Both the position numbers and the translations under genes were made by a program. A stretch of 64,000 nucleotides of DNA from a phage. The DNA is taken from assembly GCA_018509705.1 (NCBI GenBank), contig GCA_018509705.1_3630.1; one strand, written 5' to 3'. This document shows, in pieces, positions 1,913-11,364 of the stretch (position 1 is the stretch's first letter; the number at the start of each line of letters is the position of its first letter). The notes beneath the pieces are model-generated. The model was not told where the DNA came from, did not search any database, and saw nothing but the letters and a program-made list of their open reading frames with translations.

Positions 1913-1989
1913 TGGTCTCCACGGAGTGATTCGAACACTCGACCTCCTGATCCCAAATCAGGCGCTCTACCAAGCTGAGCTACGCGGAG
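1913..1989 (-). tRNA. tRNA-Pro (anticodon UGG)
   Basis: Cloverleaf readable on minus strand: 7-bp acceptor, T-loop GTTCGAATC, anticodon loop TTTGGGA, CCA encoded. Confidence 0.7.
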
Positions 1990-2000
1990 TATTTATTATT

Positions 2001-2076
2001 TGGTGGCCCTGGGTGGAATTGAACCACCGTCTGGCGATTATGAGTCGCTTGCTTGAACCTTCCAGCTACAGGGCCA
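2001..2076 (-). tRNA. tRNA-Met or Ile2 (anticodon CAU)
   Basis: Minus strand; T-arm GGTGGTTCAATTCCACC, anticodon loop CTCATAA, CCA encoded. Confidence 0.6.
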
Positions 2077-2153
2077 TGGTGCTGATGGCAGGACTTGAAC
2101 CTGCAACCTATTGATTACAAATCAATTGCACTACCAATTGTGCTACATCAGCA
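2077..2153 (-). tRNA. tRNA-Thr (anticodon UGU)
   Basis: Minus strand; D-arm GCACAATTGGTAGTGC, anticodon loop TTTGTAA, T-arm GCAGGTTCAAGTCCTGC, CCA encoded. Confidence 0.65.
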
Positions 2154-2157
2154 AAAA

Positions 2158-2256
2158 GGTGCTAGGTGATGGAATCGAACCACCTATGTATTCAACGACT
2201 ACCTCGTCTATTTTCAGGATTAAAAATCCTCGCCCTTGCCAAAGGGCTTACCTAGC
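2158..2256 (-). tRNA. Aberrant tRNA-like element (good acceptor/D/T arms, irregular anticodon arm, over-long variable region); possible pseudo-tRNA
   Basis: Acceptor GCTAGGT/ACCTAGC pair, T-arm GGTGGTTCGATTCCATC, but anticodon stem does not close canonically and about 30 nt lie between anticodon arm and T-arm. Confidence 0.25.
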
Positions 2257-2354
2257 TCAGTATGTTGACCATGTTGCTAGTCGGCGATGACGACTGTAAC
2301 ATTTGATAATCCGGTTCTGCTTCCGGCTTTCGCTTAATTACAAGGTCAACAATA

Positions 2355-2445
2355 TGGCTGAGGGTAATGGAATCGAACCATCATCAAGTCATCCTCAACG
2401 GGACGGTTTTCAAGACCGCTTGAGCACCATTGCTCCCTACCCTCA
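2355..2445 (-). tRNA. tRNA-Ser (anticodon UGA), type II with long variable arm
   Basis: Minus strand; acceptor TGAGGGT/ACCCTCA, anticodon loop CTTGAAA, long variable arm, T-loop TTCGATT, CCA encoded. Confidence 0.6.
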
Positions 2446-2559
2446 TTTATAAACAATACTGATAATGACACTGATTTTCGAGCAGTTAGTGACTAGTATA
2501 AACGACGATAAATATCAATGCCATTATCTGTATGATTTATGCATTTAAAACTATAAATT

Positions 2560-2646
2560 TGGTGGGGAGTGGTGGAGTCGAACCACCCGAGTCGCAATGA
2601 CAATAGATTTACAGTCTACACCGCTACCCCTACGGGATAACTCCCC
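2560..2646 (-). tRNA. tRNA-Tyr (anticodon GUA), long variable arm
   Basis: Minus strand; acceptor GGGGAGT/ACTCCCC, anticodon loop CTGTAAA, T-arm GGTGGTTCGACTCCACC, CCA encoded. Confidence 0.6.
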
Positions 2647-2650
2647 AATT

Positions 2651-2725
2651 TGGCACCCCGTACTGGACTCGAACCAGTGTCAACGGCTTAGAAGGCCGCT
2701 GCTTTATCCACTAAGCTAACAGGGC
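2651..2725 (-). tRNA. tRNA-Arg (anticodon UCU)
   Basis: Minus strand; D-arm GCTTAGTGGATAAAGC, anticodon stem-loop GCGGC-CTTCTAA-GCCGT, T-arm ACTGGTTCGAGTCCAGT, CCA encoded. Confidence 0.65.
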
Positions 2726-4975: not shown

Positions 4976-5104
4976 AAGTAATAAATTTAAAACATGGTAC
5001 TTAGGATCTAATATATTCTACATAAGTTAAGTATATGTACTTAGTACCATAAGTACTAGATCTTTTGTTTTTTATTATTTAGTTATTTTAGTTATATTCT
5101 TTAT

Positions 5105-5148
5105 GTGTCCGTATCACGGACAGTTAGTGTCCGTATTACGGACAGTTA
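5105..5148. repeat. Tandem 22-bp direct repeat, each copy an inverted repeat GTCCGT-N3-ACGGAC (operator-like)
   Basis: GTGTCCGTATCACGGACAGTTA followed immediately by GTGTCCGTATTACGGACAGTTA. Confidence 0.6.
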
Positions 5149-5219
5149 CTAACCTCTGTTCCAGAGCGAACATAAAACATACGAATCCTTATAGTACAGA
5201 TATTTAAGTTTTTACTGGT

Positions 5220-5570
5220 CTAACCAGTTGTTGACATTCGAATAACTTCTTCTGGTGGCAAAACTTTGGAAAATGTGCATCTTTTACCTCTCCCTTGTGT
5301 GGATATTTCAACCACTCCCGCACATTCTAAAGTTTTAACGCACGCTGCTGCTTTTGTTTTCTTTATTCCAACATCTGCTGCAATTTTCCTTGTGCTGGGT
5401 GTGAAGCGTGAACTTCCTCCAAGCTTATACCAGTTGTGCAGGTAGCAGTATACGATCTTGTCATACAAGTCAAGAACAACAACCTCCCCAGTTGTGTCAT
5501 TCAAAACTTTTGACATAGATAGTATTTCAAGGGGGACTTTAAGATATAGCAGCTTATCCCCATCTTTCAT
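5220..5570 (-). CDS. putative helix-turn-helix DNA-binding protein
   Basis: Segment TRKIAADVGIKKTKAAACVKTLE resembles an HTH; sits beside the palindromic tandem repeat. Confidence 0.35.
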   Translation of the reverse strand: MKDGDKLLYLKVPLEILSMSKVLNDTTGEVVVLDLYDKIVYCYLHNWYKLGGSSRFTPSTRKIAADVGIKKTKAAACVKTLECAGVVEISTQGRGKRCTFSKVLPPEEVIRMSTTG

Positions 5571-5617
5571 ATCTCCTGATTCTCCTTGTGTGGCAATTTT
5601 CTTTAAAATAGCAGGGA

Positions 5618-6172
5618 TTACTCCCCGCTGTCAATAGCAAAACTCATTGCAATACGGTATGCCTCTTCTAATGGTAAGAGTCTCCCCCACACATCCCAAC
5701 CGACATCAAACTGTCTGCCAAACAACTGTTGTGTGGTTCCGTGAGCATGACCGAACAGTTGGACTGATCCGTGAGGCTTTCTGTTCCACTTTGCAAACTG
5801 GTAATGGCTCATACAGATCAAATTCTTGTTGTGGCGAAGCTCGTAATAATCTACAACCTCATGACCGAACTCTTTCATAATTCTGACAGTCGTCCTTGTG
5901 TCATGGTTACCACGAACAAGAATAATATGTCCGTTCAACATATTTAGAACATCTGGGAGCAATTTGTTGATATTCTTATCATTAGTGCACGCAATATCTC
6001 CCAAGTGAAACACAGTGTCTGCAGGTGACACAACAGAGTTCCACTTGGTGATGATTCCCGCATTCATACTGTCAAGATTGTGATCATACTGAGATCTGTG
6101 TTTTTGACATGAGTCGAACTCCATGACCCGCTGGTGGAGAAAGTGTGTGTCGCTTGTTACAAAGTATTTCAT
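5618..6172 (-). CDS. calcineurin-like metallophosphoesterase (Ser/Thr-phosphatase fold)
   Basis: Motifs SDTH(F), LGDI, GNHD in order; start at MKYF with GAGGA RBS, 7 nt after stop of upstream kinase gene. Confidence 0.7.
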   Translation of the reverse strand: MKYFVTSDTHFLHQRVMEFDSCQKHRSQYDHNLDSMNAGIITKWNSVVSPADTVFHLGDIACTNDKNINKLLPDVLNMLNGHIILVRGNHDTRTTVRIMKEFGHEVVDYYELRHNKNLICMSHYQFAKWNRKPHGSVQLFGHAHGTTQQLFGRQFDVGWDVWGRLLPLEEAYRIAMSFAIDSGE

Positions 6173-6179
6173 ACATTCC

Positions 6180-6590
6180 TCATTTAAGTTTAATGCAGTT
6201 TTTAAGCTGGCGTTCCATACGATCCACAACCCTGTCTGGAACATCATGAATGCTTTTATTACCATGGCGGTTTTCAACCACGATCACGGTATAACTATAC
6301 CCATGACTGATCGCCATGTCAATATATTCTTGCACATATTTTTCTTTTGTAAACGTATTACTTACCACGATACGGTCGTATCCCATACGCATCATATCTT
6401 CTACGTTATCTTTGCACCATTTTGCTGCAAGTGTTACTTTACTTGCATCCCAGTTGTAATTTCCATCATCGTCGTACCAGAACATGTCGTTCTCAAAATG
6501 TGGATACAGACCTTCTAAAGATAGCGCATTTGCCAGTGTTGATTTGCCAGACCCTGGTAGACCACGCACGATATATAGCATTTTAGACAT
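6180..6590 (-). CDS. P-loop kinase, polynucleotide-kinase-like
   Basis: Walker A GLPGSGKST near N-terminus; GGAGG RBS before ATG at 6590; directly upstream of the phosphatase. Confidence 0.55.
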   Translation of the reverse strand: MSKMLYIVRGLPGSGKSTLANALSLEGLYPHFENDMFWYDDDGNYNWDASKVTLAAKWCKDNVEDMMRMGYDRIVVSNTFTKEKYVQEYIDMAISHGYSYTVIVVENRHGNKSIHDVPDRVVDRMERQLKNCIKLK

Positions 6591-6711
6591 AGTAATCCTC
6601 CGTTTTAATTTCAACGATAGTATACCCAACTGTTTTGTTAATTTCAAGTGTTGACACTAGGTTATTTGTGTGGCAGGATAGACTGACAAAATGACAAATG
6701 AGGAATGTATA

Positions 6712-7626
6712 ATGAAGTATTTTAATGCAGACGACCTAGTTGACAAAGGTCTTGTAACCAGCAGATATTACCCAGATCTTGGGTTAAAGATCTATAAATA
6801 TGCCAGAAAAGTATTCTACAACAACTTATGGCATTTGTCTCCTCGATTACTGGAGTGCCGAGGCATTGTTGTCGGTAATGAAGGAAATGTTGTGGCATGG
6901 CCCTTCACAAAAGTGTTTAACTTGGGAGAAAACTCCACCAACCTGCCTGACAATAAGCTTGTGACGGCGGTAGAGAAAAAGAACGGATTCCTTGGTGTGG
7001 TGTCATCTCATAAAGGTGAACTATTGTTCTCAACAACCGGGTCTCTTGATTCTCCATATTGTAACCTTGCAAAGGAAACCATCCAGGAGCAATGCAGTAA
7101 TTTAGATCTTATCAAGAAGGTTATGGGCAATGAAAACATGACATTCATGTTTGAAATTTGTCACCCTTCAGATCCGCATATTGTTCAGGAAGATCATGGT
7201 GCATATTTGATAGGTTGCAGATATAATGATTCTGGAATAATGCTACCAGAAGCAGCTTTAGATGGGATTGCCAAATACCTTGGTGCAAAACGTCCTCACA
7301 CTGTGCGTGAAATTCCGTTCAGTTATGCAAAAGAATTGGCTGCAGAAACAAGAGGTGAAGGGTATATGATTCGTAAGCCTTACTACCCTTATGATCTGCA
7401 GCTGAAGATTAAGTCTCCATACTATCTGGCACGGAAGGCCGTAATGAGGGGTAAAGCTTGGAAGATTTGGGATGATGATATCTTTAAACGTGTTGACGAA
7501 GAGTTTTACGGCATGGTAAACTTCATTCGTAACAACTACACAGAGGATGTATGGAACTGCCTCCTGGAGCAGGAACGCCGTGAGATACTTGATTACTATT
7601 TCCACAACGAGAACTATATGCAATGA
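6712..7626 (+). CDS. RNA ligase (covalent nucleotidyltransferase superfamily)
   Basis: Motif I KKNGF (KxNG), motif IV EGYMIRK, motif V LKIK; AGGAA RBS before ATG 6712 (alternative start 6691). Confidence 0.6.
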   Translation: MKYFNADDLVDKGLVTSRYYPDLGLKIYKYARKVFYNNLWHLSPRLLECRGIVVGNEGNVVAWPFTKVFNLGENSTNLPDNKLVTAVEKKNGFLGVVSSHKGELLFSTTGSLDSPYCNLAKETIQEQCSNLDLIKKVMGNENMTFMFEICHPSDPHIVQEDHGAYLIGCRYNDSGIMLPEAALDGIAKYLGAKRPHTVREIPFSYAKELAAETRGEGYMIRKPYYPYDLQLKIKSPYYLARKAVMRGKAWKIWDDDIFKRVDEEFYGMVNFIRNNYTEDVWNCLLEQERREILDYYFHNENYMQ

Positions 7627-7973
7627 AGAAGTTGATTGTGTGGCTAGATGACTTGAGAGATCCGTCAAATTATGGGCTCCCAGACGCTATTTGGCTAAAG
7701 AATTCCTCCGAGTTTATGGATTTTATTAACGATAATAAAAAGCTCTACAGACGCGTTTCTGAGTGGCATATGGACAACGACCTTGGAGAGGTATTCGAAG
7801 GGTACGATTGCCTATCCATGTTGGAGGAAAAGTTTGTATTTGGTAAGCCTCCTGTAGTTGACAACGTGAAGATTTTCGTGCATACTTCTAACCCATCAGC
7901 GGCTCGTAAATTCATGCTTGCGACTGACTCGTTTAAAAAGTTTGGAATAGAGATTAAACAAAACATCTACTGA
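7623..7973 (+). CDS. small receiver-domain-like protein
   Basis: IVWLDDLRDP ... HMDNDLG ... HTSNP spacing resembles a REC-fold acidic pocket; overlaps stop of RNA ligase. Confidence 0.3.
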   Translation: MKKLIVWLDDLRDPSNYGLPDAIWLKNSSEFMDFINDNKKLYRRVSEWHMDNDLGEVFEGYDCLSMLEEKFVFGKPPVVDNVKIFVHTSNPSAARKFMLATDSFKKFGIEIKQNIY

Positions 7974-7981
7974 GGACACTT

Positions 7982-8743
7982 ATGCGACGACTGATTGTTA
8001 TCTCCGGTGCTGGTTTGAGTGCTGAATCTGGTATTCCCACTTTCCGATCTGGTAGCACTGCAATGTGGGAGAATTTCAGCATCGATGAGGTGTGCAACAT
8101 CCACACCTTTGCCAAGAACTACTATAAGGTGCATGACTTTTACAATGCACGTCGTGTAGCTTTAGGCAGTGTTGAGCCTAACCTTGCACATCTTCGGATC
8201 GCTGAGTGGTATTCCCGCTGGTCTGGTCGTGTGATCAACCTTACCACCAATGTAGATGATTTGCTGGAGCGTGCTGGTGTAAAACATGAAGATATTTTAC
8301 ATGTCCACGGGTATTTGCCAGAAATAGTCTATGAGGACGATGAAGGAAGTGACGTCATTAAGGACATTGGATACTCTGAGGTAGACGCAGGAAAGTATAC
8401 CTGGGTTAAGCCTAATGTGGTGTTCTTCGGAGAAGTAGCTCCGAAGTATACAGACATGTATGACCTGTTGACTTCTCTTACGAGCAATGATATGGTTATC
8501 CTTGTAGGGTGCTCCAACACAGTTATCAATTTTAACTGGGAGCTATTCCCTGCCTGCAATAAGGGAACCAAACTACTGATCGTTAATAAATACGACTCAC
8601 AGCATCTAGAGGAGAATGGCATTTCACGTAGTGATATTTACCAGTATGAGGATCGCGGCATCCCAGTTTGGTTTAACGGTGCGGTTGATGCCTTCTCTGA
8701 TAAAACATTCATTGAGACTGTAGAAAACTTTATGGAACTTTAA
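7982..8743 (+). CDS. Sir2-family (sirtuin-like) NAD-dependent protein
   Basis: ISGAGLSAESGIPTFR matches sirtuin GAGISxxSGIPxFR; TTNVDDLLERAG and HG motifs follow. Confidence 0.7.
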   Translation: MRRLIVISGAGLSAESGIPTFRSGSTAMWENFSIDEVCNIHTFAKNYYKVHDFYNARRVALGSVEPNLAHLRIAEWYSRWSGRVINLTTNVDDLLERAGVKHEDILHVHGYLPEIVYEDDEGSDVIKDIGYSEVDAGKYTWVKPNVVFFGEVAPKYTDMYDLLTSLTSNDMVILVGCSNTVINFNWELFPACNKGTKLLIVNKYDSQHLEENGISRSDIYQYEDRGIPVWFNGAVDAFSDKTFIETVENFMEL

Positions 8744-8756
8744 AAGGAGACCTTTA

Positions 8757-9470
8757 ATGCTGAATACTAAATTAATTGACAACCTGGAAAAACTATCCCA
8801 ACCTGAAAACTACCTTTGGTCTGCCAACTGGGTGGAAAACTGGAACCGTGTGGCAGCTAAAGTGAAAAAATCATACACACCATTCGAATTACAGCTTAGC
8901 TTCATTGAGGAAGAGTTCAATGAAGTTTTGGAAGAGCTGGAGAAAGGTGATGGTGGAGATCACCTGCTAAAAGAGGCCTGCGATCTTCACGTTGTCACAA
9001 GTTATGCAGCTTATCTTGTTAATGACAATCACGAAAAGTGGTCAAACCTGTTTGATAATCCACGAGGTCTTAAGTTCAAGATCGGTGAGTTCTATGACAC
9101 ACTGATCGCTGCGAAAAACACATCCAAGCAAAGAGCGTCAGCTTACCGTTTAGCGGAGTTGTCAACAGCTTTGCTGTTCCAGCTTCGCGGCGATGTGTGC
9201 GGGATGATGCGTAAGGTTCTCAAATCGAATGACAGCAAGTTTGCACGGGTCAACCATCTACGGTATTCACACGGTGCCAGTGCAGATATGCCTGCTGAAC
9301 AACTCATCGAGTTGGAGATTAAAGATCTTGAGCGACGCTTTGATGGTCGATATGAAGGTTTTGTTGCTAAGGAAGAATTCTACAACGGTAATAAAGTTAT
9401 CATATTCCTCGACAGTAAAGGTAAGATTATGAAGCCTTCAAGCTTCAAGGATGTAACAGAATATATTTAA
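8757..9470 (+). CDS. hypothetical protein, possible MazG/HisE-like all-alpha NTP pyrophosphatase
   Basis: FIEEEFNEVLEELEK ... EACDL resembles EExxE...D motif; weak. Confidence 0.3.
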   Translation: MLNTKLIDNLEKLSQPENYLWSANWVENWNRVAAKVKKSYTPFELQLSFIEEEFNEVLEELEKGDGGDHLLKEACDLHVVTSYAAYLVNDNHEKWSNLFDNPRGLKFKIGEFYDTLIAAKNTSKQRASAYRLAELSTALLFQLRGDVCGMMRKVLKSNDSKFARVNHLRYSHGASADMPAEQLIELEIKDLERRFDGRYEGFVAKEEFYNGNKVIIFLDSKGKIMKPSSFKDVTEYI

Positions 9471-9476
9471 TAATAT

Positions 9477-9500
9477 AGCCGGGGCGATCCCGGCTTTACT
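9477..9500 (+). terminator. Rho-independent terminator
   Basis: Hairpin AGCCGGG-GCGAT-CCCGGCT followed by T-rich stretch. Confidence 0.5.
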
Positions 9501-9843: not shown

Positions 9844-10099
9844 TCTTGCTAAACCTGTAGAAGCACACCAGTTTGACGGAAGCTCTTCATCAGTATCTGA
9901 TCTGCAACGGTGGATTGATACAGGTGTGTTTACATCGTCACCTGTTCGGACCAGAGATCTTCGTCGTATGTGTGAGCTTGTAGAGCCGTTTGGTAACCTA
10001 GTCTTGTACCAGGGTGATTGGCTTGTTGATTTTATGGGTGACTGGTTGGTAATGAGTAAAGAAGAGATGTTTAAAATTTTTAAGGAAGAGGTAGAGTAA
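9830..10099 (+). CDS. hypothetical protein
   Basis: ORF track; overlaps neighbours by a few nt (operon-like). Confidence 0.4.
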   Translation: MPLFNLAKPVEAHQFDGSSSSVSDLQRWIDTGVFTSSPVRTRDLRRMCELVEPFGNLVLYQGDWLVDFMGDWLVMSKEEMFKIFKEEVE

Positions 10100-11364
10100 T
10101 GCATCAATTCAAAACAACACTTTATGCTCGCAATAAAGACGGGTCCATCCAGATGTGGAAAGTAGATACAAGCGGCAACGAGGTTATTGTTGTGTTCGGC
10201 AGGGTTGGTGGCGCTGTACAATCAAAAACCACAAAATGTGAAGCCAAAAACATCGGGCGATCCAACGAAACTACAGCAGAAGAACAAGCTGTTTTAGAGG
10301 CGCAGTCTAAATGGGAAAAGCAAGTCCGGCTGGGTTACAAAGAAAATGTCGAAGACCTTGAGGCCATTGACATTTCACCTATGCTGGCGCAAGATGCTTC
10401 GAAAAAACCACACGCTATTGTGTATCCATGCCACCTGCAACACAAACTTGACGGGAACCGTTGCTTTGTCAAATTCGTAGACGGTGTACCTAAATTCATC
10501 TCTCGCGGTAACAAAGTGTATGAGCCGAAAGGTAACATCCTCCGTGAGCTACAAGACCTGCATGAAGAAACAGGCTTTGATGAATTTGATGGGGAGTTCT
10601 ACATTCACGGTTTACCGTTGCAGAAAATAACCTCCCTCGTTAAGAAATGGCGTAGTCTGGAAGACATTGAGAAAGAAATTGATAAGGATTTCATGGCAGA
10701 CATAAAACGCCGTGAGAAAGCGATCAAGGCCGGAGAGGAGACATGGAAAGACTTCAACAAGGTTGATCATCCGGTTTATGAAGAACCTGTCCGTGATTCT
10801 GATCGGTATGGAGGTTACTGCTCTTATGACCTGAAACTGATGGTGTTCGATGTTCCTGATTGCATCCATCGCTGGGAAGATCGGGCCACAAATCTTCAGG
10901 AAGTTATTGATTATTGTGAAGTTAACCATCTCACAAACGTCGAGGGTGTTCCTTTCAAGATCGCCTACAACGAGGAAGAGGTTCGCAACTCCATCGGACA
11001 GTACATGCAGGAAGGTTATGAAGGATCTATTATTCGTAACTTCTGTGGCACCTACGAATACGGTCAACGCTCTACTGATCTGCTCAAGTGGAAACTGTTC
11101 ACCGATGTTGAAGCAAAAGTGATCGGTGTTGAAAAAGATAAAAACGGGGAAGGTGTTCTTATCTGCGAAGAGAAAGATGGGACACAATGCAAATGCAAAA
11201 TGAAAGGCACTTTTGCCGTAAGGAACTACGAAAAATGCTGCTCATATGTTGGCAAATTTATCACGATAAAATTCCAACAGCGTACGGTGGACGGTGTGCC
11301 TCAATTCCCTGTGGGTATCGCATTCCGCAATCTTAATCCAGAAACTTGGGAGGTGCTGGAATAA
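10099..11364 (+). CDS. ATP-dependent DNA ligase
   Basis: Motif I KLDGNR, EGSIIRN (motif IV-like), C-terminal OB-like VPQFPVGIAFR. Confidence 0.7.
   Translation: MHQFKTTLYARNKDGSIQMWKVDTSGNEVIVVFGRVGGAVQSKTTKCEAKNIGRSNETTAEEQAVLEAQSKWEKQVRLGYKENVEDLEAIDISPMLAQDASKKPHAIVYPCHLQHKLDGNRCFVKFVDGVPKFISRGNKVYEPKGNILRELQDLHEETGFDEFDGEFYIHGLPLQKITSLVKKWRSLEDIEKEIDKDFMADIKRREKAIKAGEETWKDFNKVDHPVYEEPVRDSDRYGGYCSYDLKLMVFDVPDCIHRWEDRATNLQEVIDYCEVNHLTNVEGVPFKIAYNEEEVRNSIGQYMQEGYEGSIIRNFCGTYEYGQRSTDLLKWKLFTDVEAKVIGVEKDKNGEGVLICEEKDGTQCKCKMKGTFAVRNYEKCCSYVGKFITIKFQQRTVDGVPQFPVGIAFRNLNPETWEVLE

Follow-up and report, generated by a model that had tools for sequence, protein, structure and literature searches.

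Here we describe a six-gene locus in a 64,000-nucleotide stretch of phage DNA (hereafter, the window; NCBI GenBank assembly GCA_018509705.1, contig GCA_018509705.1_3630.1) that probably encodes an RNA break-repair system, in which cut RNA ends would be healed and then sealed. Its likely substrates are tRNAs, and it would act as a conditional counter-defence. The genes, identified with Pfam and PHROG and all lying inside positions 5618-9470, encode a P-loop kinase, a metallophosphoesterase, an Rnl1-family RNA ligase, a stand-alone receiver-fold protein (cREC), a Sir2-family enzyme and a MazG-like nucleotide pyrophosphohydrolase. A preliminary description of this DNA proposed healing and sealing (5' kinase, 2',3'/3' phosphoesterase and RNA ligase) for the first four, a reading that survives every in silico test run. 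The four open reading frames (ORFs), their coordinates and their motifs were confirmed, with each family above its curated Pfam threshold.

The novelty implied by the preliminary description did not hold: the prediction of an RNA break-repair gene set in these phages has already been published, and novelty is low. The same neighbourhood, with Escherichia phage V5 as its prototype, is set out by Iyer et al. 2022 (Viruses 14:1977, PMC9503650, section 3.7.3), and GenBank records of related phages already label the cassette genes as RNA ligase, polynucleotide kinase, phosphoesterase and sirtuin. The rV5-specific extension of the probable heal-and-seal cassette comprises cREC, Sir2 and MazG.

The proposed repair consists of three steps. 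These are (i) the metallophosphoesterase would open or remove the 2',3'-cyclic or 3'-phosphate left by metal-independent ribonucleases, (ii) the kinase, judging by homology and gene fusion, would phosphorylate the 5'-OH, and (iii) the ligase, judging by its conserved catalytic residues and fold, would self-adenylylate on K96 and join the 3'-OH to the 5'-phosphate. Host or phage tRNAs cut by anticodon nucleases or toxin RNases are the likely substrates. As a working hypothesis, cREC, the zinc-less sirtuin and the MazG-like pyrophosphatase would most likely widen the range of repairable ends, or clear by-products containing nicotinamide adenine dinucleotide (NAD+) or ADP-ribose.

Ligase, kinase and phosphoesterase

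The four originally described proteins pass the Pfam gathering scores (AAA_33, 41.1 bits; Metallophos, 27.8; Metallophos_2, 28.5; RNA_lig_T4_1, 57.0; cREC_REC, 54.7) and are thus not chance ORFs; all four also have strong PHROG matches. No above-threshold NCBIfam name was obtained for any of the six cassette proteins.

The ligase gene occupies positions 6712-7626 of the plus strand, encoding 304 amino acids (aa) from the second ATG of an ORF that opens at 6691 (motifs VEKKNG, GEGYMIRK and LKIKS). The second ATG is probably the true start, because a GAGGA Shine-Dalgarno sequence (SD) stands there, homologues open with MK(F/Y), and residues 1-7 of the AlphaFold2 (AF2) model have a predicted local distance difference test score (pLDDT) below 50. 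The protein scores 57.0 bits against PF09511 (cut-off 28.3; 3.3e-15) and matches T4 RnlA by BLASTP (4e-10). Single-sequence PDB searches with the ligase and the kinase gave nothing useful, and family profiles were needed. A 40-sequence ligase profile finds T4 Rnl1 (2c5u) at 3.4e-13, with a second match at 0.01 to 8uce, which is deposited as 'ATP dependent DNA ligase' and named in the fold search as a Palaeococcus RNA ligase. With the AF2 model (pLDDT 92.1) as query, Foldseek places T4 Rnl1, archaeal Rnl3 and the ligase domains of fungal Trl1 first (~1e-11), and DNA ligases appear at 1.6e-5 or weaker. By profile and by predicted fold alike the matches are to RNA ligases, DNA ligases scoring much lower, which rules out the DNA-ligase identity that the preliminary description had raised as a competing possibility. 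Further, the phage has its own ATP-dependent DNA ligase, encoded separately from the Rnl1-like enzyme at 10099-11364 (plus strand; PF01068 and PF14743; phrog_114, 3.6e-79).

Alignment with T4 Rnl1 pairs K96, E155, E223-G224 and K239/K241 of the phage ligase with T4 K99, E159, E227-G228 and K240/K242, and the Rnl1-specific R57, K74 and F76 with T4 R54, K75 and F77; T4 G102 is also matched. Eleven T4 Rnl1 residues, which we take from Shuman-laboratory mutagenesis to be essential, are R54, K75, F77, K99, G102, K119, E159, E227, G228, K240 and K242; ten of the 11 are kept in place in the phage enzyme. The T4-aligned catalytic positions are at least 94% conserved among 77 viral homologues, and only some 60 helical residues follow motif V. 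The protein is predicted to be an Rnl1-family ATP-dependent RNA ligase that joins 3'-OH to 5'-PO4 RNA ends.

The kinase gene (6180-6590, minus strand; 136 aa; GLPGSGKST) belongs to a very large family of stand-alone 'predicted kinases' of ~130 aa, and matches AAA_33 (2.7e-10) and phrog_505, 'polynucleotide kinase' (3e-10). The best full-length PDB matches of its profile, at modest E-values, are L-seryl-tRNA(Sec) kinase (PSTK; 8e-5), Capnocytophaga Pnkp1 (1e-4), T4 Pnk (3e-4) and the kinase domain of Clostridium thermocellum Pnkp (CthPnkp; 6e-4). Adenylate, shikimate and uridine kinases give E-values of at least 6e-3 and align over the P-loop only. A deoxynucleoside monophosphate kinase, the other competing identity raised in the preliminary description, is ruled out by these profile matches, which are to polynucleotide and tRNA kinases. 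The P-loop (G10-x-x-G13-x-G15-K16-S-T18) and D35 are invariant in the family, and D35 aligns with the catalytic D35 of T4 Pnk. In the lid, R108 corresponds to T4 R122, and K113 roughly to the lid arginine R126; R108 is at least 90% conserved among close relatives only, and BLASTP against T4 PseT aligns the P-loop alone. The phage protein comprises the kinase domain and carries no C-terminal HAD (DxDxT) 3'-phosphatase domain. It is, by these matches, a stand-alone P-loop protein that resembles polynucleotide 5'-OH kinases.

The phosphoesterase gene (5618-6172, minus strand; 184 aa; SDTH, GDI and GNHD motifs) matches phrog_547 at 5e-51, and both Metallophos and Metallophos_2 above the gathering score. 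All five metallophosphoesterase motifs are present (D8-x-H10, G58-D59, G88-N89-H90-D91, H123 and G141-H142-x-H144) and are invariant among 59 viral homologues, the third as G88-N89-H90. The nearest solved structure is Aquifex aq_1665 (1xm7; 4e-24 by profile), of unknown function, and a weak NCBIfam similarity to the ligase-associated phosphoesterase PdeM was also recorded (2.4e-4). The protein is a binuclear metallophosphoesterase, and is proposed to remove 2',3'-cyclic and 3'-phosphate ends. The split healing enzyme of the preliminary description, in which a metallophosphatase replaces the HAD domain of T4, is borne out by the separate polypeptides.

The three genes as a phage module

The surroundings of the ligase were surveyed in 80 viral-contig loci encoding it, grouped into 41 clusters at 70% identity; neighbours within 8 kb were counted. 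A kinase is present in 35 of the 41 clusters, a phosphoesterase likewise in 35/41, and both together in 33/41. An ATP-dependent DNA ligase occurs in 15/41, cREC in five of the 41, Sir2 in 4/41 and the MazG-like gene in 4/41. The kinase and phosphoesterase lie on the ligase strand in all clusters except the rV5 type, often abutting or overlapping, and the order of the three genes (hereafter, the triad) varies, including phosphoesterase-ligase-kinase and kinase-ligase-phosphoesterase. In two further clusters kinase and ligase are fused (AAA_33 + RNA_lig_T4_1) in single ORFs of 431-433 aa; these are found in viral contigs L103-L118 (e.g., L105:574-1872), with no separate kinase or phosphoesterase nearby. 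The neighbourhoods point to ligase, kinase and phosphoesterase as a widespread phage core module, to which cREC, Sir2 and MazG are minority add-ons.

Individual lineages illustrate how the module varies. The bare triad occurs in Pakpunavirus and in a Vibrio phage. Streptomyces phage Stanimal encodes a related ligase among tRNAs and a tmRNA, and its neighbour at 0.75 kb is a Pnkp of the T4 kinase-HAD type (gp205; AAA_33 + HAD_PNKP), an arrangement that reads as non-orthologous (functional) replacement of the healing module. The order of the six genes differs between phages of the rV5, Klebsiella/Cronobacter and phi92 types, which gives three arrangements; Sir2 is missing from the phi92 type. 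The ligase-kinase(-phosphoesterase) genes of Pakpunavirus (contig L063, 5896-9833) and phi92 (L003, 1258-3956) stand beside genes for ribose-phosphate pyrophosphokinase and nicotinamide phosphoribosyltransferase, with a Macro-domain protein also nearby in the former; the presence of these NAD-salvage genes indicates a link to NAD metabolism even without the sirtuin. Two phAPEC8-like contigs (L011 and L015) contain cREC, phosphoesterase, DNA ligase and MazG genes, but the stretch between these yielded no intact ORF for the ligase or the kinase. We do not treat this apparent loss as lineage-wide, because relatives in GenBank (e.g., nepoznato) have a ligase gene next to that of the phosphoesterase; gene decay or an assembly error may account for it.

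Bacterial defences that cut tRNA are common, and include PrrC, RloC, PARIS, retrons, Cas13 and Schlafen-like nucleases. To our knowledge, T4 Pnkp/Rnl1 is almost the sole experimentally proven phage repair answer to them. Given its occurrence in coliphages, Klebsiella, Vibrio and Pseudomonas phages and many uncultured phages, the triad is probably a commoner solution than that of T4. It may affect the host range of therapeutic phages (Vequintavirus and Pakpunavirus). A 2025 paper on Pakpunavirus suggested tRNA repair by kinase and ligase and remarked on the absent phosphatase domain, and did not connect the nearby phosphoesterase.

The rV5-type locus and its add-on genes

The window comes from an rV5-like coliphage (Vequintavirus), ~98% identical to published genomes. 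Over positions 5000-9500, identity is 97-98% to upwards of 100 published E. coli myophages of the rV5 kind, among them rV5_ev147, slur16 and BASEL phages such as MaxBurger/Bas54. As a side observation, about 20 unannotated GenBank records (MG0656xx) labelled 'Campylobacter phage' (host Campylobacter jejuni) are 97-99% identical to rV5-like coliphages here; these are probably mislabelled or contaminant sequences.

The locus consists of two divergent units. The kinase and phosphoesterase genes are separated by 7 nt, as originally described, with a GAGGA SD preceding the phosphoesterase start. A sigma-70-like site (TTGAAA-17-TATACT; minus strand, 6647-6619) lies upstream of the kinase and is a consensus match only. 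The intergenic region between the two units spans 6591-6711; the originally reported 100-bp gap holds for the ligase ORF opening at 6691, and becomes 121 nt with the probable start at 6712. An identical 15-nt string, AAATGAGGAATGTAT, which includes the GAGGA SD, occurs at 6173-6187 and 6697-6711, preceding the phosphoesterase start and the second ATG of the ligase, respectively; both proteins start with MKYF. The repeat looks like a duplicated translation-initiation region, or may be a coincidence.

On the plus strand, the ligase gene is followed by cREC (7623-7973; 116 aa), whose ATG overlaps the ligase stop codon (ATGA), the Sir2-family gene (7982-8743; 253 aa, without zinc-ribbon cysteines) and the MazG-like gene (8757-9470; 237 aa; phrog_671). 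The spacers ahead of the latter two are 8 and 13 nt, respectively, and each gene has its own SD. A terminator-like GC-rich hairpin follows at 9477-9495 (plus strand; 8-bp stem with six G-C pairs, then a T-rich tail). From this layout, ligase, cREC, Sir2 and MazG-like genes form one predicted terminated transcription unit, 6712-9495. The preliminary description had ended the cassette at 7973 and so missed the co-transcribed Sir2 and MazG-like genes. Directly downstream, and co-directional with the phosphoesterase gene, a further gene (5220-5570, minus strand) encodes a winged-helix 'transcriptional regulator / replication initiation' protein. This gene is probably important for the phage, because transposon reads per site in the Bas54 orthologue (bas54_0212) are ~10-fold lower than those in the cassette genes.

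The receiver-like nature of the small plus-strand protein was confirmed by its match to PF20274 (54.7 bits; 1.7e-14, above threshold); the receiver fold is present. The statement that it has no assigned role fell, since PF20274 is the 'Cyclic-phosphate processing Receiver domain': cREC was named, and cyclic-phosphate processing predicted for it, by Iyer et al. 2021 (PMC7824862), with a role also predicted in PMC9503650; the activity that would be expected of it is hydrolysis of a 2',3'-cyclic or 1''-2''-cyclic phosphate. Both papers describe cREC as experimentally uncharacterised, and a literature search for later experimental work on it found none. Aspartates are conserved at the positions of the receiver active site: D9/D10 come after strand 1, and strand 3 closes with D51-N-D53. 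Also conserved are T88/S89, where strand 4 ends, and H87, N90, P91 and K96. Compared with response-regulator receiver domains, the phage protein stands alone at 116 aa, without an output domain, and has an extra D53 (forming a DxD reminiscent of HAD phosphatases), an invariant H87-x-x-N90-P91, and K96; according to PMC7824862, cREC genes are never linked to histidine kinases. This receiver/HAD-like constellation, of the kind that handles acyl-phosphates, makes an aspartyl-phosphate phosphatase mechanism plausible, and such an activity would be at least as plausible as the published metal-independent cyclic phosphodiesterase.

A full scan for cREC homologues gave 1,462 representative clusters, most of them consisting of stand-alone proteins 100-125 aa long, and no second Pfam domain was found in ten longer homologues. 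On one viral contig (L058, 9974-10744) two cREC ORFs lie in tandem. We surveyed 150 ORFs adjacent to cREC in 29 distant viral loci; the neighbours include scattered NAD-related genes, namely NADAR (2), NAD synthase and NAD-dependent DNA ligase. In the distant lineages L098 and L134, cREC also adjoins the triad. In Proteus phage Privateer it belongs to a run of genes (contig L002, 2362-6339), with tRNA genes alongside, in which an RtcB-type RNA ligase is encoded ~2.5 kb upstream of cREC; the run also encodes an SPFH/band-7 protein and an AAA+ ATPase. RtcB-type ligases use a different chemistry, acting directly on 3'-P/2',3'>P ends.

The Sir2 protein matches PF02146 (3e-27), and its nearest solved structure is E. 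coli CobB (1s5p; 1.7e-21). Closest to CobB/SIRT5, it keeps the GAGxS and TxNxD motifs, the catalytic histidine of HG, and FYxxRR; the segments GAGLSAESGIPTFR, TTNVDDL and HVHG align with CobB. It does not carry the Cys4 zinc ribbon: the span from HG to the FGE motif is free of cysteine, and the four cysteines of CobB align with other residues. In sirtuins, the zinc module shapes the peptide-binding cleft. The MazG-like protein matches phrog_671 (5.4e-22) and gave no Pfam match and no PDB sequence match; a MazG superfamily member is named in this neighbourhood (PMC9503650), and the assignment, which stays provisional, draws on these two sources only.

A cluster of seven tRNA or tRNA-like genes (1913-2725, minus strand; ARAGORN, Rfam and folding) lies 2.9 kb from the cassette, in agreement with the tRNA cluster originally placed about 3 kb away. 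One of them (2160-2256, minus strand) is a 97-nt tRNA-like gene unassigned by ARAGORN. From the anticodon loop, UUUUUAA, it reads as Lys(UUU), but the variable region carries an additional hairpin of 27 nt, which is unusual for tRNA-Lys; the fold z-score is -4.1. Across 92 phage records, conservation of the gene is 99% or higher and its labels vary (tRNA-Lys, tRNA-OTHER, tRNA-TERM); it is tRNA-Lys in Bas54. PrrC and PARIS classically target tRNA-Lys(UUU). The CAT-anticodon tRNA is called Met by ARAGORN and Ile(ATA) in the Bas54 annotation; an Rfam match to 'Plastid-ycf2 5'UTR' (2003-2075, plus strand; 41 bits, below gathering) lies antisense to this tRNA and is an artefact of its tRNA-like structure.

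Competing explanations and comparison with known systems

Several observations weigh against RNA repair as described here. In the ligase, T116 stands where T4 Rnl1 has K119, the C-terminal helical region is ~60 aa shorter than T4's tRNA-binding domain (304-311 aa against 374 aa in total), and the T4 RnlA equivalog TIGR02308 (NCBIfam) gives 40.2 bits against a cut-off of 242; by these measures the phage ligase is not an RnlA orthologue. In the kinase, no residue aligns with the acceptor-phosphate-binding R38 of T4 Pnk. No member of the aq_1665 subfamily, in which the phosphoesterase falls, has been characterised; at E<=0.1 the phosphoesterase profile finds only aq_1665, GpdQ and two uncharacterised proteins in the PDB, and the CthPnkp phosphatase domain goes undetected. 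With no CthPnkp match, and a sole close solved relative of unknown function, its proposed action on RNA ends is drawn from context alone. At the level of gene neighbourhoods, most triads are without cREC, Sir2 and MazG, and no RNA-ligase family is among the 25 of 66 neighbour families listed for the 29 distant cREC loci. Given this lack of enrichment, the link between cREC and RNA repair depends on the enterobacterial phages plus L098, L134 and Privateer; as far as the neighbourhoods indicate, the tie is real, not universal. Finally, Vequintavirinae are still sensitive to the tRNA-cutting retron Eco2 (PMC12916289).

Transposon data from the HIDEN-SEQ preprint (10.1101/2025.11.20.689424) bear on several readings. 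The six cassette orthologues in Bas54 (bas54_0206-0211) carry abundant insertions on K-12, as expected for an accessory, host-dependent function. The same preprint reports no significant depletion of cassette insertions on two uropathogenic E. coli isolates (q 0.75-1.0), a further point against a repair role. All six genes are dispensable in Bas54 on these three E. coli hosts. The ligase orthologue, bas54_0209, has 60 TA sites with a mean of ~190-260 reads, like clearly non-essential genes, whereas the N-terminal part of T4 rnlA is essential and its C-terminal part tolerates insertions (10.1101/2025.11.20.689424). It follows that the rV5-type ligase is no essential tail-fibre-attachment factor, and that role is ruled out. 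A broader version, in which the ligase is mainly a virion-assembly factor like T4 gp63 and RNA repair is secondary, draws on its homology to T4 gp63/Rnl1, on the essential N-terminal part of T4 rnlA, and on the many GenBank records that say 'RNA ligase and tail attachment protein'. Yet the tolerated insertions, neighbours that are nucleic-acid enzymes rather than tail genes, and a linkage or fusion to a kinase that would have no rationale in fibre attachment make it very improbable. Little more weight attaches to the idea that the triad cleans DNA ends (3'-phosphate/5'-OH nicks), in replication, in recombination or after nuclease attack, so that the adjacent ATP-dependent DNA ligase could seal them. 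A DNA ligase is within 8 kb in the 15 clusters noted above and 2.5 kb off here, T4 Pnkp works on DNA as well as RNA, and the phosphoesterase is weakly PdeM-like; but the linked or fused partner has an RNA-ligase fold, DNA ligases rank far lower in sequence and fold searches, and we judge the idea unlikely.

A more serious contender is that two adjacent modules are present: the triad would repair RNA, while cREC, Sir2 and MazG would form a separate counter-defence that does not touch RNA ends, and would destroy NAD+/ADP-ribose-derived or nucleotide second messengers or deacylate host proteins. The absence of cREC from 36 of the 41 ligase clusters, and of Sir2 and MazG from 37 of the 41, fits this arrangement, as do the contigs with Sir2 and no cREC (L070, L072 and L077) or cREC and no Sir2 (phi92 type, L098 and L134). 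So do the NAD-related surroundings of cREC in the distant loci, with no RNA-ligase family among the 25 families listed, the NAD-salvage genes beside the triad in phi92 and Pakpunavirus, and the closeness of the sirtuin to the protein deacylase CobB, with FYxxRR kept. Against it, the cREC start overlaps the ligase stop within a single four-gene terminated unit, cREC adjoins the triad in three enterobacterial gene orders and two distant lineages and lies near an RtcB ligase in Privateer, and the sirtuin is without the module that shapes the peptide-binding cleft. On balance, two modules are possible, and we give the view only limited weight. More doubtful still is an idea of Iyer et al. 2022, by which the rV5-type cassette would run a Trl1/Tpt1-like 2'-phosphate route built from unrelated folds: the sirtuin is proposed to act on 2'-phosphates in the manner of KptA/Tpt1 (PMC9503650). 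By such a route, cREC would open the 2',3'-cyclic phosphate, or act through its DxD as an aspartyl-phosphate phosphatase, and the Rnl1-like ligase would seal; the zinc-less sirtuin would then strip the leftover 2'-phosphate with NAD+, and the metallophosphoesterase and/or MazG would clear ADP-ribose cyclic-phosphate or nucleotide by-products. If true, this would give the first RNA-acting sirtuin and the first catalytic, non-signalling receiver domain.

Conditional repair of cut tRNA by heal-and-seal chemistry thus stays our preferred reading. A saturated transposon library of the near-identical Bas54 exists, and the counter-defence hypothesis is therefore directly testable on hosts expressing tRNases. 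The add-ons of the rV5 lineage are also a tractable place in which to learn the roles of cREC domains and zinc-less phage sirtuins.

Among known systems, the type-2 sirtuin-centred neighbourhood of PMC9503650, from mid-sized proteobacterial phages, has the identical gene set (T4-like tRNA ligase, cREC, nucleotide kinase, sirtuin, MazG and calcineurin-like phosphoesterase) and shows no substantive difference. That account centres on the sirtuin and calls the phosphoesterase 'occasional', whereas in our survey the triad is the core (33/41) and sirtuin, cREC and MazG are occasional. With T4 Pnkp (pseT) and Rnl1 (gene 63), which act against PrrC, the locus has a common logic of 5' kinase, 3' healing and Rnl1-family ligase, and keeps the ligase catalytic residues, the kinase P-loop and Asp35. 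It differs from T4 in that (i) kinase and phosphatase are separate, the latter being a binuclear metallophosphoesterase rather than a HAD (DxDxT) enzyme, (ii) the ligase is ~60 aa shorter C-terminally, carries Thr in place of T4 K119 and does not reach the cut-off of the RnlA equivalog, and (iii) the rV5-type ligase is dispensable in Bas54, unlike the N-terminal part of T4 rnlA.

The bacterial Pnkp/Hen1 systems (C. thermocellum; Capnocytophaga Pnkp1-Pnkp2-Rnl-Hen1) likewise combine a P-loop kinase, a calcineurin-type metallophosphoesterase and an adenylyltransferase ligase, and bacterial Pnkp kinase domains (4gp7 and 4xrp) are among the nearest solved relatives of the phage kinase. Compared with C. 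thermocellum Pnkp, the phage activities are spread over three polypeptides instead of one, with an Rnl1-like ligase and an aq_1665-like phosphoesterase, and no Hen1 methyltransferase was seen in the cassette. The ligase domain of fungal and plant Trl1 belongs to the same Pfam family as the phage ligase, and its fold match is about as good as that of T4 Rnl1 (6n0t, 9qw7 and 8rbj). In the Trl1 + Tpt1 pathway, the junction 2'-phosphate is removed in an NAD+-dependent step, the role that has been proposed, by analogy, for the phage sirtuin. The phage cassette has neither a 2H cyclic phosphodiesterase nor a Tpt1/KptA fold; cREC and Sir2 would be their non-homologous analogues.

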